From Ruminiclostridium sp. (GTDB lineage: Bacteria > Bacillota > Clostridia > Oscillospirales > Oscillospiraceae), in assembly GCA_017435425.1 (NCBI GenBank), contig JAFSFC010000009.1, positions 10,050 to 74,049 of the forward strand: a DNA stretch of 64,000 nt, written 5' to 3'. Positions 3,618 through 55,408 of this stretch are shown here, in pieces. Position 1 is the stretch's first letter. Each line of letters starts with the position of its first letter. A program made the position numbers and the translations under genes. The notes under the pieces are model-generated. The model worked only from the letters and a program-made list of their open reading frames with translations. It made no database searches and was not told the origin of the DNA.

Positions 3618-4937
3618 TCATTTCTGAACGCTCATGTAAGCAGGGCGAATGATTTTGCCTGCGCCCACCAGCTCTTCCAGCCGGTGGGCGCTCCAGCCCA
3701 CGATGCGGGCGGTGGCAAAGAGAGGGGTATATAGCTCAAGGGGGATCCCCAAAAGCTCGTAGAGGAAGCCGCTGTAGAAGTCCACGTTGGGGCTGACCTC
3801 CTTGCGGCCGGGGCGGCTCTCGGCCAGAAGAGCCGGTGCCAGATCGGCGATGTTCCGGAAGAGGATCAGGTCCTCCTCCCGGCCCTTGGCCCGGGCCAGC
3901 TTGCCGGTAACGGCCCCCAGGAGCTGGGCCCTGGGGTCCGACAGGGAGTAAACCGCATGGCCCATGCCGTAGATGAGACCGGACCTGTCAAAGGCCTGGC
4001 CTGCCAGGAGTTTTCGCAGATAGTTCTCGGTGGCCGACCGGTCGGTCCAGTCGGAGACATTGTCCTTCAGGTCCTGGATCATCTCCATGACCTTCAGGTT
4101 GGCCCCGCCATGTCGGTGGCCCTTCAGGGAGGACAGGGCAGCGGCCATGGCGGCGTAGGTGTCCGACCCGGCGGAGGTCACCAGCCGGGTGGTGAAGGTA
4201 GAGTTGTTGCCCCCGCCGTGCTCCATGTGGAGAATGAGGGCCAGATCCAGGGCCTTGGCCTCCAGGGGGGTATAGGACTGGTCCGGCCGGAGCATCCGCA
4301 GGAAGTTTTCTGCCGTGGACAGGTCGGGGTCGGGCCGGTGGATATACATGCTCTCGCCCTTTTCGTAGTGGTTATAGGCGTGGTACCCATAGACTGCCAG
4401 CATGGGAAACTCGGCAATGAGGCGGATGCACTGGCGCAGGCTGTTGGCCAGACCGGGGGCCTGGGCCTGGGGGTCGTAGTTGGCCAGGGTGAGGACGGAA
4501 CGGGTCATGGAATTCATGATATCCCTGGAGGGGGCCTTCATGATCACGTCCCGGGTGAAGTTGGTGGGAAGGGTCCGGCAGGAGCCCAGGATGGACCGGA
4601 ATTCAGCCTCTTCCTCCTGGGCAGGCATCTGACCAAAGAGGAGGAGGTAGGCCATTGGCTCAAAGCCCAGTTCCTTGGGCCCCAAGCCGTTGATCAGTTC
4701 CCGGATGTTATGGCCTCGGTAGCAGAGCTGACCGTGACAGGGGACCCGTTTTCCGCCCTGGTCCTGAAAGGCCACAATACTGGAGATCCGGGTCAGGCCC
4801 GTGAGGACACCCACCCCGTTGGCATCCCGAAGACCCCGGTTTACCCCGTACTCTGCATAGAGGGCATCGGGGATCACATCGTTTTCCAGACACAGGGGGA
4901 CCTGGGCCTGGGCGTATTCCTCAAGGCGTGCGTCCAT
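3618..4937 (-). CDS. gltA: Citrate synthase family protein
   Basis: EHGGGNNSTF, HGGAN, GMGHAVY and NVDFYSG catalytic motifs intact. Start MDARLEE with a GGAGG RBS. Confidence 0.88.
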   Translation of the reverse strand: MDARLEEYAQAQVPLCLENDVIPDALYAEYGVNRGLRDANGVGVLTGLTRISSIVAFQDQGGKRVPCHGQLCYRGHNIRELINGLGPKELGFEPMAYLLLFGQMPAQEEEAEFRSILGSCRTLPTNFTRDVIMKAPSRDIMNSMTRSVLTLANYDPQAQAPGLANSLRQCIRLIAEFPMLAVYGYHAYNHYEKGESMYIHRPDPDLSTAENFLRMLRPDQSYTPLEAKALDLALILHMEHGGGNNSTFTTRLVTSAGSDTYAAMAAALSSLKGHRHGGANLKVMEMIQDLKDNVSDWTDRSATENYLRKLLAGQAFDRSGLIYGMGHAVYSLSDPRAQLLGAVTGKLARAKGREEDLILFRNIADLAPALLAESRPGRKEVSPNVDFYSGFLYELLGIPLELYTPLFATARIVGWSAHRLEELVGAGKIIRPAYMSVQK

Positions 4938-51217: not shown

Positions 51218-51360
51218 AAATTTACAAAAATGATTGCAAAAGTTATTTAACTGTGATATAATCGGAATAAGAAAGCAGAAGGCACCGTGCACCCTTGGAC
51301 CACCGGCCCAGAGGATGGGCGGTGCCTTTTCGGTTATGGAGTGACAAAAGGAGGACCGCC

Positions 51361-52623
51361 ATGAAAAAGAGATTGATATCCTTGAGCCTGTCCCTGGTTC
51401 TGGCCCTTGGTCTTGCCGTCCCCGCCGGGGCTGTGATGGGGGAAGCGGGGACCATCGCTGTCAGCGGAAGCCTGTCCGCCGCCGTGGACGAAAACGGAAC
51501 CTTGTACACCTGGGGCCTGAACAACTACGGCCAGCTGGGCAGTGACAACCAGGCCAACTCGGAGGACGAGTACGGCACCCCGGAGCAGACCGTTCCCCTG
51601 GCTGTCCTGGAGGACGTGAAGGCTGTGGCCCTGGGGGACTTCCACGGGGCAGCCATTAAGGAAGACGGCACATTATGGACCTGGGGCTGCAACGACAACG
51701 GCCAGGTAGGGAAGAAGAAGGTCAACGACAAGGACGTCATGTGGTACAGGGCCAGGATCCTTCCTCGTCGCCTGGTGACCCCTTACCAGTCTGTTCCCGT
51801 TCAGATCATGGAGGACGTGGCCAAGGTTTCCGCCGGGGACTACTTCACCGCCGCAGTGAAAACGGATGGCACCCTGTGGACCTGGGGTTCCAACTGGCAC
51901 GGGGAGCTGGGCAACAACCACGAGAAGGACCATAGGGCCAAGGTTGGAGCCTGCCGAAAGGAGCCCACCTTTATTATGGAAGGCGTGGCCGACGTGGCTT
52001 GTGGCTCTTGGCACACTCTGATCCTGAAAACCGACGGCACCCTGTGGGCCTGCGGCAGCAACGAGAGTGGTCAGCTGGGCATTAAAGAGGTGGCCGACCA
52101 GGTGGTACCGGTTCAGGTGATGACCGATGTGGCGGCCATCGCCGCCGGGGGAGTCTACTCTGCCGCCATTAAGACCGATGGGACTTTATGGACCTGGGGA
52201 GATAACGAATATGCCCAGCTGGGTACCGGAGACACCAGACCCCGCAGTATGCCCGTTCAGGTCATGGAGGACGTGGCTCAGGTGAGTCTGGGAACCTATC
52301 ACACCTTTGTGATTAAGACCGACGGCACCCTCTGGGGCTGGGGTTGGGACCGATTCAACCAGCTTGGCACCGGTCAGCCCCTGGCAGGGGAGGTCCAGCG
52401 GTACACGAAGGAACCTGCCCAGGTGATGACGGATGCGGCTCTGGTGGATGCCGGGACCTGGTCTACCCTGGCGGTGAAGACCGACGGGACCCTGTGGACC
52501 TGGGGCAGTGATACGTCCGGCCAGTTGGGCACCGGCGGCAAAGGTGACCTGACTGACGAAGAAGGCGATTCCGTCCAATCCGTGCCAGTGATGCTGGAGG
52601 AACTGAAGGTGAAACTGCCTTGA
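51361..52623 (+). CDS. Secreted RCC1-repeat (beta-propeller) protein
   Basis: Signal peptide and about 7 repeats of type IKTDGTLWTWG.N..GQLG. Confidence 0.9.
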   Translation: MKKRLISLSLSLVLALGLAVPAGAVMGEAGTIAVSGSLSAAVDENGTLYTWGLNNYGQLGSDNQANSEDEYGTPEQTVPLAVLEDVKAVALGDFHGAAIKEDGTLWTWGCNDNGQVGKKKVNDKDVMWYRARILPRRLVTPYQSVPVQIMEDVAKVSAGDYFTAAVKTDGTLWTWGSNWHGELGNNHEKDHRAKVGACRKEPTFIMEGVADVACGSWHTLILKTDGTLWACGSNESGQLGIKEVADQVVPVQVMTDVAAIAAGGVYSAAIKTDGTLWTWGDNEYAQLGTGDTRPRSMPVQVMEDVAQVSLGTYHTFVIKTDGTLWGWGWDRFNQLGTGQPLAGEVQRYTKEPAQVMTDAALVDAGTWSTLAVKTDGTLWTWGSDTSGQLGTGGKGDLTDEEGDSVQSVPVMLEELKVKLP

Positions 52624-52648: not shown

Positions 52649-52778
52649 TACAATCCCCCAGTCATGGCTGCGCCATGCCAGCCCCCTTTGCACAAGTGGG
52701 CCTTGAGGTTGGTACTTGCCTCTGCCTCCCTTGTGTAAAGGGAGGTGGCTCGCCGTCAGGCGAGACGGAGGGATTGTA
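52649..52778. repeat. Intergenic palindromic repeat family M, copy 4
   Basis: tacaatcccccagtc...ccttgtgtaaagggaggtggctcgccgtcaggcgagacggagggattgta. Confidence 0.85.
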
Positions 52779-53001
52779 AACCCGAAGGGCAGTTCTCACG
52801 TTTGAATTATGTCCGAACAATATGCACACAAACACCCGCCGGAAGTCGGGTGTTTGTTGTTGTTTTGACGAAAATCTGTTTTTGACGAAAAAATTGCAAA
52901 AAGGGGTTGCAATCTCTCCGTGATATGTTATTATGTTAGTGCTTTAGTACGATAGAGTATTGAACCAACTCTACCAGATTTCTTTTAGGAGTGTTAAAAT
53001 T

Positions 53002-53817
53002 ATGAAGAAGTATCTTGCTCTGATTCTGGCTCTGGCAATGAGCTGCTCCCTGCTGACCGCTTGCGGCGGCGGCGAGGAACCCGCACCCGCAGAAGACACC
53101 GCTGAAGAGACCGCTCTGGTCTACGCTGTTGAGGCTGGCTCCGCCGGCGAAGCAGTGGCAGCTGAGAACGGCTTTGACTACAACTCCGTGGCTTCCCAGG
53201 CTGACGCTCTGATGGAAGTTGCCTCCGGCACCTCTGATGCCGCTATCATCGACCTGCTGATGGCAGGCGCCATGATCGGCGAAGGCACCAGCTATCCCGA
53301 CCTGATCACCGGCGAAGAGCTGACCACCGAAGAGTACGGCGCAGGCTGCCGCCTGGAGTCCGACCTGACCGCTTACATCAACTGGGTCATGGCTGAGGCT
53401 TATGCAGACGGCACCATGCAGACCATCGCTGAGACCTACGGCGTCCAGGCTGCTCTGGTGGAGCAGGCTGCTATGGAAGAACCCGAGATCGCTGCTGACG
53501 GCGACATCGCTTACATCCAGGACAAGGGCGTTCTGGTGGTTGGCATCACCGACTTCGCTCCCATGGACTACAAGGACGAGGCTGGCGAGTGGATCGGCTT
53601 CGACGCTGACATGGCTCGACTGGTTGCCGAAAAGCTGGGCGTTGAGATCCAGTTCGTGGAGATCGACTGGGACACCAAGATCATGGAGCTGGATTCCAAG
53701 AGCATCGACGTGGTTTGGAACGGCATGACCCTGACCGCAGAAGTCACCGCAGCTATGAACTGCACCAACGCTTACTGCAACAACGCACAGGTCGTTGTTC
53801 TGCCCGCAGCTGAATAA
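53002..53817 (+). CDS. Polar amino acid ABC transporter substrate-binding lipoprotein, circularly permuted
   Basis: Lipobox LTAC; the SBP_bac_3 C-half precedes the N-half. Confidence 0.9.
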   Translation: MKKYLALILALAMSCSLLTACGGGEEPAPAEDTAEETALVYAVEAGSAGEAVAAENGFDYNSVASQADALMEVASGTSDAAIIDLLMAGAMIGEGTSYPDLITGEELTTEEYGAGCRLESDLTAYINWVMAEAYADGTMQTIAETYGVQAALVEQAAMEEPEIAADGDIAYIQDKGVLVVGITDFAPMDYKDEAGEWIGFDADMARLVAEKLGVEIQFVEIDWDTKIMELDSKSIDVVWNGMTLTAEVTAAMNCTNAYCNNAQVVVLPAAE

Positions 53818-53935
53818 GAAATACACGACAAACGTCTTCCTTCCTGAACAGAACAAGCCAAAGGCAGAGAGGTCTCCTCTCTGCCTTTGACTGGCGTATA
53901 GAGAGATTGCAAGAAACACACGAGGAGTGTCCACC

Positions 53936-54589
53936 ATGCTTTGGAACGTTACAACCACCCTGCTCGGCGGTCTTGCCACCACCGTTGAGATCTTCTTTCT
54001 GACCCTGCTGTTTGCCCTGCCTCTGGGTCTGATCATCGCCTTTGGCACCATGACCAAATTCACCCCCATCCGCTGGCTGTGCAACGCCCTGGTCTGGGTG
54101 GTGAGAGGCACCCCCCTGATGCTGCAGCTCATCGGCTTCTTCTACATCCCCGGTATCCTGGGCCTGCACATCTGGCCCGGCGGTGACCCCGGCCGTATGA
54201 TGGCCACCGTCGTTGCCTTTTCCCTCAACTACGCCTGCTACTTCTCGGTCATCTACCGGGGCGGTATCCAGGGCGTGCCTATTGGTCAGCGGGAGGCCGG
54301 CGAGGTCCTGGGCATGACCAAGAGCCAGATCTTCTTCAAGATCACCCTCATGCAGATGATCAAGCGCATCGTGCCCCCCATGTCCAACGAGATCATCACC
54401 CTGGTCAAGGACACCTCCCTGGCCCGTATCATCGCCGTCTACGAGCTGACCTTCACCGGCTTCTCCTTCATGAAGTCCGCCGGTCTGGTCTGGCCCCTGT
54501 TCTACACCGGCGTGTTCTACCTGCTCTTCGTGGGCATCCTGACCATCTTCTTCAACTACTTAGAGCGCAAGCTCGACTACTTCAGATAA
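53936..54589 (+). CDS. Polar amino acid ABC transporter permease
   Basis: RGTPLMLQL, GQREAG..LGM and LVKDTSL. Confidence 0.93.
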   Translation: MLWNVTTTLLGGLATTVEIFFLTLLFALPLGLIIAFGTMTKFTPIRWLCNALVWVVRGTPLMLQLIGFFYIPGILGLHIWPGGDPGRMMATVVAFSLNYACYFSVIYRGGIQGVPIGQREAGEVLGMTKSQIFFKITLMQMIKRIVPPMSNEIITLVKDTSLARIIAVYELTFTGFSFMKSAGLVWPLFYTGVFYLLFVGILTIFFNYLERKLDYFR

Positions 54590-54601: not shown

Positions 54602-55369
54602 ATGACCGTCTTAGAAGCAAAACACATTGAAAAGCATTTTGGTTCCGTCCGGGTCCTGGAGGACATCAGCTTCTCCCTGGAAGAGGGCCAGGTCCTGGCC
54701 ATCATCGGCTCCTCCGGCAGCGGCAAGACCACCCTGCTGCGCTGCCTGAACTTCCTGGAGACCCCTGACAAGGGTACCATCACCGTAAAGGATGAGCTCC
54801 TGTTCGACGCTGCCGACCCCGCCACCCAGCGGGAGAGTGAGATCCGCCGCAAGCGCCTCCACTTCGGCCTGGTCTTCCAGGACTTCAACCTCTTCCCCCA
54901 GTACACCGCCCTGCAGAATGTCACCCTGGCCCGGGAACTCATGGCCAAGACGGAAAAGACCGGCGAGAGCCTGGAGGACATCCGGGCTGAGGGCATCGAG
55001 CTTTTGACCATGATGGGACTGAAGGACCGCATGAGCAACTACCCCCACCAGCTCTCCGGCGGCCAGAAGCAGCGTGTGGCCATTGCCCGCGCCCTGGCCA
55101 TGAAGCCCTCCATCCTCTGCTTTGACGAGCCCACCTCCGCCCTGGACCCCGAGCTCACCGGCGAGGTGCTGAAGGTCATCCGCAGCCTGGCCGACCAGGA
55201 CCGTACCATGATCATCGTCACCCACGAGATGGAGTTCGCCCGGGACGTGGCCGACAAGGTCATGTTCATGGACGGGGGCGTGGTGGTGGAGGAGGGCCCT
55301 CCCTCTGAAGTCTTCGGCAACCCCAAGCACCCCAGAACCCGCCAGTTCCTGGACAAGTTCAGTGGATAA
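54602..55369 (+). CDS. Polar amino acid ABC transporter ATP-binding protein
   Basis: GSSGSGKTT, LSGGQKQR, FDEPTSALDPE and VTHEM. Confidence 0.95.
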   Translation: MTVLEAKHIEKHFGSVRVLEDISFSLEEGQVLAIIGSSGSGKTTLLRCLNFLETPDKGTITVKDELLFDAADPATQRESEIRRKRLHFGLVFQDFNLFPQYTALQNVTLARELMAKTEKTGESLEDIRAEGIELLTMMGLKDRMSNYPHQLSGGQKQRVAIARALAMKPSILCFDEPTSALDPELTGEVLKVIRSLADQDRTMIIVTHEMEFARDVADKVMFMDGGVVVEEGPPSEVFGNPKHPRTRQFLDKFSG

Positions 55370-55408
55370 ACAACGAAAGCCCTCCGGCTCAACGGAGGGC
55401 TTTTTTAC

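Follow-up and report, generated by a model that had tools for sequence, protein, structure and literature searches.

Circular permutants of periplasmic binding proteins are known as engineered molecules that serve biosensors and folding studies (see also PMC9815098). Natural permutants have also been described in other classes of substrate-binding proteins (SBPs). Namely, TpMglB-2 (Tp0684) of Treponema pallidum, assigned to "Cluster Bc", was a natural permuted and lipid-tethered SBP from an ATP-binding cassette (ABC) operon; its ligand binding and closure were shown, and it had homologues in Gram-positive gut bacteria (PMC4990184). Members of this cluster carry the first three N-lobe strands at their C-terminal end and have a fourth hinge crossover (PMC4990184). 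A circular-permutation relation among natural type II SBPs was detected by CPSARST for the OpuAC/ProX glycine-betaine binders (PMC2395249), and GlnPQ of Gram-positive bacteria carried family-3 substrate-binding domains fused head to tail (PMC8025302; PDB 6h30). In the literature that we searched, no report of a permuted PF00497 protein was found. Here we describe such a protein from Ruminiclostridium sp. (Bacillota; Clostridia). Its gene was located at positions 53002..53817 (+ strand) of a 64,000-nucleotide stretch of contig JAFSFC010000009.1 (assembly GCA_017435425.1, positions 10,050 to 74,049), which we refer to as the window, and encoded 271 amino acids (aa) followed by a stop codon. A first-pass annotation of the window, made from the sequence alone, had proposed the permutation and assumed that circular permutants are normally engineered. 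This background was incomplete, as TpMglB-2 (PMC4990184) and the glycine-betaine binders (PMC2395249) demonstrate.

Reversed order of the two halves

We confirmed that the product of this gene was a family-3 SBP lipoprotein in a naturally occurring, circularly permuted form, which was widespread and selectively maintained. When the protein was compared with the Protein Data Bank (PDB) chains using phmmer, residues 171-267 matched residues 5-102 of the Thermotoga ArgBP (6svf) with 62.8 bits (independent E-value 3.6e-16), while residues 40-144 matched residues 120-224 of the same chain with 27.8 bits (independent E-value 1.7e-5). Thus, the order of the two halves was swapped, as had been proposed. 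Neither phmmer nor Foldseek returned a collinear full-length match among the PDB chains, canonical SBP_bac_3 proteins included. The match to the PF00497 profile (91.2 bits, E 6e-26; cut-off 26.4 bits) was likewise split over two stretches. On the other hand, a doubled canonical unit could be aligned collinearly over 221 residues, with a local alignment score of 502 compared to 281 for the single unit, which is the signature of a circular permutant. We designated this form permutation type A.

The gene could be divided into five consecutive parts (all features below lie on the + strand unless stated otherwise). The lipoprotein signal peptide (53002..53064) ended with the lipobox LLTAC, whose Cys21 was near-invariant among 126 homologues. 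It was followed by an acidic Pro/Ala-rich tether (residues 22-37, 53065..53112), which was disordered in the predicted model, with a predicted local distance difference test score (pLDDT) below 50 for residues 1-34. The signal peptide and the tether together read MKKYLALILALAMSCSLLTAC-GGGEEPAPAEDTAEE, a lipobox Cys and then a flexible tether as in the SBP lipoproteins of Gram-positive bacteria. The canonical C-half (residues 38-146, 53113..53439), aligned to 6svf 120-224 and running in secondary structure from strand E40-44 to helix H138-146, contained lobe 2 in full together with hinge strand 2; of lobe 1, it contributed the C-terminal strand and two helices. Next came a linker between the old C- and N-termini (residues 147-170, 53440..53511), delimited by comparison with the canonical orthologue L018 and predicted with pLDDT ~96. 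Finally, the canonical N-half (residues 171-268, 53512..53805), aligned to 6svf 5-102 and superposed by Foldseek at a root-mean-square deviation of 1.4 A over 83 columns, comprised the main part of lobe 1 and finished with hinge strand 1 (NNAQVVVL). The sequence motifs previously read in both halves, the linker of ~20 aa and the position of the new termini beside the first hinge strand all held in this comparison; the cut was in the loop directly after hinge strand 1.

The junctions were defined using L018, a canonical-order orthologue from the same bacterial family. The C-terminus of the permutant, …NAYCNNAQVVVLPAAE, halted where the chain of L018 ran on as …VPAAVADQYQTVEACKDLVFAAEEGSAGE, and the mature N-terminus of the permutant consisted of the tether followed by LVYAVEAGSAGE. 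Three pieces could be recognised in the linker, ETYGVQAALVEQ-AAMEEPEIAADGD-IAYIQDKG: the C-terminal tail of the canonical form (ETYGVQAAVIAQ-stop in L018), a tether-like acidic stretch, and the N-terminal helix of the canonical form (DLDYVLGKG in L018). In the window protein, the tail portion was YGVQAALVEQ, followed by AAMEEPEIAADGD and the start of the N-terminal helix, and the general pattern was ETYGVQAAxxxQ from the tail, the acidic stretch, and D.D.AYIQ.KG from the helix. Thus, the joint of the old termini consisted of recognisable canonical terminal sequences, as permutation by duplication predicts. No relic half-genes were found in the flanks of the permuted locus.

Predicted fold and path of the chain

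AlphaFold2 was run on the monomer with the alignment of 126 sequences. The mean pLDDT was 87.9 and the predicted template-modelling (TM) score 0.79, with residues 35-268, the linker included, above 90; two of the five models were poorer (pLDDT ~68). The predicted chain began with three beta-alpha units of lobe 2 (E40-H91) and hinge strand 2 (E101-106). It then passed through a strand and a pair of helices belonging to lobe 1 (up to residue 146), the linker, and the N-terminal helix of the canonical form, and finished with four lobe-1 beta-alpha units and hinge strand 1 (E263-268) before the stop. All canonical secondary-structure elements were therefore present in the model in a rotated order. 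Foldseek superposed only the N-half on canonical SBPs (~83 columns, 1.4 A). Since Foldseek needs the same sequence order in both proteins, a match confined to the N-half is what a permutant should give. The best full-length TM-score was obtained for OpuAC and was poor (0.45).

These predictions suggest a lipid-anchored extracellular receptor of a three-gene importer of the polar-amino-acid-type (PAAT) ABC class, with the family-3 two-lobe "Venus flytrap" fold built from a circularly permuted chain. After the lipobox and the tether, the chain would build the whole of lobe 2 first, and hinge strand 2 would then lead it to the part of lobe 1 formed by the C-terminal strand and helices. Via the linker of ~24 residues, which would bridge the former C- and N-termini, the chain would complete lobe 1 and end directly after hinge strand 1. 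If so, each lobe would be encoded contiguously and hinge 2 would be the only covalent crossover, while hinge strand 1 would be a free C-terminal end that docked only non-covalently. The membrane lipid tether would hang from lobe 2 instead of lobe 1.

Independent sequence data and selection

The permuted gene was recovered from several independent data sets. In the metagenome run X49, a single contig of 1662 nt covered positions 52750-54300 with two differences; it began upstream of the gene, included all of it and reached the permease gene. Contigs of X53 and X56 (other studies, one of them on a sheep gut) tiled the gene at an even depth of ~8-12 with both junctions included; their pieces spanned from the signal peptide to the C-half, from the C-half to the N-half, and from the N-half through the stop to the permease. 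The linker was also spanned by metatranscriptome contigs from X73 (774 nt at 97.7% identity), X77 (184 nt) and X78 (265 nt), for which DNA carry-over is possible. In its own genome, the gene was present in a single copy, and the remaining SBPs were at most 36% identical to it. The ratio of nonsynonymous to synonymous substitution rates (dN/dS; pairwise Nei-Gojobori, 286 pairs) was 0.22 overall; by region, it amounted to 0.24 in the C-half, 0.17 in the N-half and 0.375 in the linker.

Distribution and canonical-order relatives

A protein search returned ~125 clusters of collinear relatives of ~270 aa with 69-96% identity to the window protein. Across 126 full-length collinear homologues, the mean column identity was 69% and 81 residues were invariant, pocket-region motifs among them. 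At the genome level, among at least 477 relatives, at least 80 species-representative loci were collinear over residues 1-269 with 63-80% identity. The carriers belonged to Oscillospiraceae and Lachnospiraceae (Acetatifactor, Schaedlerella, Marvinbryantia, Butyrivibrio and others) and included cultured mouse-gut isolates such as 1xD42-87 and 0.1xD8-71. The order SBP-permease-ATPase was kept in 74 of the 76 loci with flanking sequence, and the remaining two broke off at the permease. Beyond the three transporter genes, no recurring neighbours were found across the loci, nor were metabolic neighbours that could hint at the ligand. At one locus (L105, the contig of P0083), genes of lysine fermentation, namely those for lysine 5,6-aminomutase subunits and for CoA transferases, lay after the transporter; this was a single occurrence and not a general arrangement.

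When 151 genomes from the same family were compared, most genera being represented once, about six had a collinear permutant with 66-72% identity, whereas many dozens had a canonical N-then-C orthologue in the same type of operon, so that the canonical form was commoner than the permutant. The N-half of these canonical orthologues was 60-74% and the C-half 50-63% identical to the permutant; for canonical orthologues such as L018, L103 and P0176, the range in the C-half was 50-67%. Similar to type A, the canonical orthologues (e.g., L018, L103 and P0176) were lipoproteins encoded in the same three-gene operon and shared the motifs VWNGMTLTxEV, CxNAYCNNAQ and EAGSAGE. Unlike type A, they had the normal order of halves, and they formed its sister clade. 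In a tree of the shared core, a single branch set type A apart from the other sequences in 96% of the bootstrap trees, with a value of 95 in the Shimodaira-Hasegawa-like approximate likelihood ratio test (SH-aLRT), which is consistent with one origin of this form. The Oscillospiraceae and Lachnospiraceae sequences were intermixed in the same tree, and this suggests horizontal spread.

Operon partners and putative binding pocket

The first-pass annotation had placed the gene in an intact ABC operon, and both partners were indeed complete. The gene was followed by a single ABC permease of the polar-amino-acid type (53927..54589; PF00528 63.2 bits, TIGR01726 57.3 bits with a cut-off of 42.2) and by an ABC ATPase of the GlnQ/TcyN type (54602..55369; PF00005 125 bits). 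The NCBIfam models nearest to the ATPase were TcyN, EhuA and GlnQ, all under their equivalog cut-offs. That the permuted receptor is functional together with this permease and ATPase was upheld by indirect evidence: the conservation of the operon, the low dN/dS, the transcripts and the confidently predicted fold. From this we infer that the protein captures a ligand and hands it over to the neighbouring permease and ATPase.

In the structures of HisJ, LAO and GlnBP, the Arg of the GMTxTxER motif binds the ligand carboxylate and the Asp of the DAxxxD motif binds the amine. The amine-binding position, Asp84, was invariant, and the Arg position was occupied by Val248, which was near-invariant in the 126 homologues. 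The same replacement of Arg by Val was found in the canonical sister L018 and throughout the whole clade, canonical members included, so this change must predate the permutation. Since the carboxylate-binding Arg was absent, the substrate may belong to a class other than the amino acids. Thus, of the earlier designation as an amino-acid-binding protein, the membership in family-3 SBPs stood, and an amino acid is only a putative ligand.

Origin of the permuted gene

We lean towards an origin in which two canonical units would have been fused head to tail and both ends subsequently trimmed. Duplication and deletion from a tandem SBP, as suggested in the first-pass annotation, was made plausible by the composite linker, the existence of tandem canonical genes and putative fused arrays, and the occurrence of several permutation registers. 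Against it, both 1.5-copy forms that we tested were chimeric.

Denoting the C-half and the N-half as modules C and N, 195 database relatives were classified into CN (126), CNC (37), NCN (16), NC (15) and CNCN (1) architectures, and NCNC proteins were also present in the databases. We rejected the CNC, NCN and CNCN entries as a duplication-deletion series because they appeared to be assembly chimeras, which was the case for both of the CNC loci that could be compared with independent runs. At locus L194, contigs of X2 and X6 ran from the N module straight into the permease gene and thus contained an ordinary CN gene. A different contig with another depth covered the second C module, and upstream of this module was the N module of a canonical gene. 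At locus L119, contigs of four runs (one of them isolate-sized) departed at position 3828, inside VVWNGMT, and continued as a plain CN gene. Moreover, identical N modules recurred in different architectures in the N-module tree, most multi-copy entries were singletons on low-coverage contigs of 1-4 kb, and the two multi-copy cases on long contigs were within ~0.6 kb of a contig end. Given the chimeric test loci, the shared identical modules and the positions at contig ends, the 1.5-copy forms were treated as assembly chimeras, and an origin by duplication, fusion and truncation is no more than plausible. The survey for 1.5-domain intermediates thus did not provide a verified one.

Apparent 1.5- and 2-copy "SBPs" were frequent in the databases (P0004-P0085 of the CNC and NCN classes, P0122, P0215, P0249 and P0083), with dozens in public metagenome sets. 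In the two tested chimeras, the permuted and the canonical gene of different organisms were joined at VVWNGMT and at the end of the N module. P0139, a canonical-order protein from an NCBI metagenome-assembled genome (16-kb contig), contained two exact internal tandem duplications of 47 aa, which look like an assembly error in the deposited genome record. Such entries would mislead surveys for evolutionary intermediates. When 401 Clostridia genomes were searched with an NCN query, only the canonical part was matched; few candidates were scored per genome and the window's own gene was missed, so this result is weak evidence. Two canonical SBP genes in tandem were observed in genome G015 (locus L102, contig C8), directly before the permease and ATPase genes, and the second copy was very divergent with a long branch.

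Other registers of permutation and fused arrays

Beyond type A, at least three registers were found in the wider clade (types B, C and D), with types C and D coming from an exhaustive search of representatives. On the 240-residue canonical unit, the type A cut was at 102-118, after hinge strand 1. In type B (about 134-142), it followed the first beta-alpha unit of lobe 2, and in type C (about 171-179), it was at the end of lobe 2, at hinge 2. The cut of type D (about 19-27) fell within lobe 1, behind the first strand and loop.

Type B was present as a second permutant in three genomes of the same family (loci L014-L016 in G012, G071 and G062; proteins P0231-P0247). These proteins started with "YTAV…", and the first beta-alpha unit of lobe 2 stayed behind the N-half at the C-terminus (…VAEAGSAGE…). 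The type comprised 16 clusters, most members retained the ER motif, and the predicted fold had a pLDDT of 86.7. Type B grouped with a canonical subclade (SH-aLRT 99), and its N-part was up to 73% identical to canonical P0248. A single origin of all permuted forms was rejected, as the approximately unbiased test excluded a common clade of types A and B (p = 0.008). Thus, type B arose independently of type A. Type C was represented by P0441, P0386, P0427, P0444, P0462 and P0491 (locus L200), with P0441 preceding a permease and an ATPase. The gene of the type D protein P0489 (L201 and L202) was complete and situated midway along a 92-kb contig. A second assembly contained the identical protein, and permease and ATPase genes followed in both. 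When 80 representatives were placed on a tree, seven changes of the order state were required, and the well-supported branches forced at least three.

The same search also returned putative arrays in which canonical units were fused (2 to 8 or more per protein), with linkers of ~10 residues, lengths up to 2001 aa and ~35% identity to the window protein. They included P0351 (2001 aa), P0352, P0353, P0354, P0358 and P0369; P0351 and P0358 ended in hydrophobic tails, and the array sequences looked like they came from low-G+C organisms.

In our estimate it is an evenly balanced question whether the clade permutes repeatedly, that is, whether single-unit receptors were cut several times and in different registers from head-to-tail fused repeats, giving a natural series of functional permutants of one fold alongside canonical sisters of 50-74% identity. 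If this is true, types A and C would turn an SBP with discontinuous domains into two contiguous lobes with a single covalent hinge. Both types would also relocate the lipid tether, which may be the target of selection.

Weighing the alternatives

Taken together, the observations are best explained by a lipid-anchored permuted receptor of a three-gene importer, and we consider this explanation highly probable. Several points weighed against it. Namely, the carboxylate-clamping Arg was absent (GMTLTAEV); no verified 1.5- or 2-copy intermediate was found near the type A clade, both tested forms being chimeras; the putative tandem arrays were only distantly similar to the window protein (~35% identity); and structure comparison was limited to the N-half, so that the full fold rested on prediction and the order of elements. 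The swapped order could in principle have been produced by a chimeric or mis-joined contig, since permuted/canonical chimeric joins at conserved motifs do exist in public assemblies of this SBP family and depth spikes at those motifs were visible on the window. However, the X49 contig spanned the whole gene, the X53 and X56 contigs tiled evenly across both junctions, the same order was found in at least 80 species genomes with cultured isolates included, and crossing two canonical genes cannot yield the CN order. An assembly artefact was already refuted by the species genomes and the independent runs, and we assign it practically no weight. The loss of the canonical Arg and the lack of conserved metabolic neighbours would also be in line with a decaying or non-transport relic, a rearranged SBP that no longer bound or delivered its ligand. 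This is very improbable, because dN/dS indicated constraint on both halves, the 81 invariant residues included the pocket-region motifs, the gene was transcribed according to the metatranscriptome contigs and encoded the sole SBP of an intact and conserved operon, and the Arg-to-Val change was shared with the canonical-order sister clade and was thus older than the permutation.

Thermotoga ArgBP, a family-3 SBP, forms domain-swapped dimers. Therefore, the family is capable of swapping, and the C-half of one permuted chain could pair with the N-half of another in a dimer or oligomer; the AlphaFold2 run on the monomer alone cannot exclude this, and two of the five models were poorer. Nevertheless, the linker was long enough, conserved in length and confidently predicted, each of the four cut registers kept one complete unit per chain as would fit intramolecular folding, and the lipid anchoring and operon stoichiometry were those of ordinary monomeric SBPs. 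We regard such swapping as scarcely more probable than the relic. With respect to the origin only, the gene could have been split into separate N and C genes that were later fused again in the opposite order; in favour of this route, no verified fused 1.5- or 2-copy intermediate was found near the type A clade. It is unlikely, since neither split half-genes nor relic halves were seen at any locus, the linker resembled a C-terminal tail read through into the tether and the N-terminal helix, tandem canonical genes and putative fused arrays exist, and several registers with the same C-to-N joint are what is predicted if single units were cut from fused repeats.

Other features of the locus

The upstream gene was closed by a terminator-like hairpin (52828..52857), and the SBP operon thus begins afresh. 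A promoter-like site (TTGCAA-16-TATTAT with an extended TG, 52907..52934) was identified by consensus match only, and an AGGAG ribosome-binding site (52987..52991), 10 nt before the ATG, was read by eye. Between the SBP and permease genes, there was a stable 14-bp stem-loop without a U-tail (53856..53892; z = -2.9 compared to shuffled sequences), which may tune the SBP:permease expression ratio. The permease reading frame opened at GTG 53927, abutting a GAGGAG site, while ATG 53936 was normally spaced from it (9 nt) and appears to be the likelier start. The three-gene operon was closed by a two-way terminator-like hairpin (55376..55403, no strand assigned).

Upstream of the operon, the region 52700-52807 had a word depth of hundreds to thousands in every gut metagenome compared, with many different continuations. 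It marks a short, highly repeated element of the hairpin type (…CCTCCCTTGTGTAAAGGGAGG…CGTCAGGCGAGACGGAGGGATTG). The upstream gene (51295-52623) was judged by eye to encode a secreted protein with RCC1-like repeats (recurring …GTLWTWG.N..GQLG…).

Comparison with known systems

Circular permutation has usually been inferred from distant structural likeness. In the present case, permuted and canonical receptors were 60-74% identical and both were common in gut bacteria. Since they shared the operon and the pocket motifs and differed in chain order, the route and the functional cost of permutation become directly measurable. For biosensor design and SBP mechanics, the clade offers four natural permissive cut sites, at least two of which leave a single covalent hinge crossover and shift the tether between the lobes. 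With respect to annotation, these proteins have been filed only as "transporter substrate-binding domain-containing protein", and profile models give two partial matches.

In comparison to the canonical cluster F SBPs (Thermotoga maritima ArgBP, 6svf and 4prs; Escherichia coli GlnH and HisJ), the window protein had homologous halves, the same predicted secondary-structure elements, PAAT-type partners and the Asp of DAxxxD. It differed in that its halves were reversed, a linker joined the old termini, the tether was placed on lobe 2, and the Arg of GMTxTxER was replaced by Val. Similar to engineered permutants, the new termini were in a surface loop and the old ones were linked, although the window protein was natural, conserved and under selection.

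TpMglB-2, a glucose binder of type I, belonged to the cluster B sugar-binding proteins and had no sequence relationship to the window protein; all our sequence and fold matches belonged to cluster F (type II), with no MglB-type match among them. The permuted part of TpMglB-2 was ~13% identical to its canonical counterpart and its origin was unclear, whereas here the permuted and canonical forms were far closer and several registers were found. OpuAC and ProX belonged to another Pfam family and ligand class, had an identity below 24%, and their relation was found by structure alone. Finally, the head-to-tail domains of GlnPQ were of the type of fused precursor that the duplication model requires; they had the canonical order and were fused to the permease, while the window protein was a single free unit.

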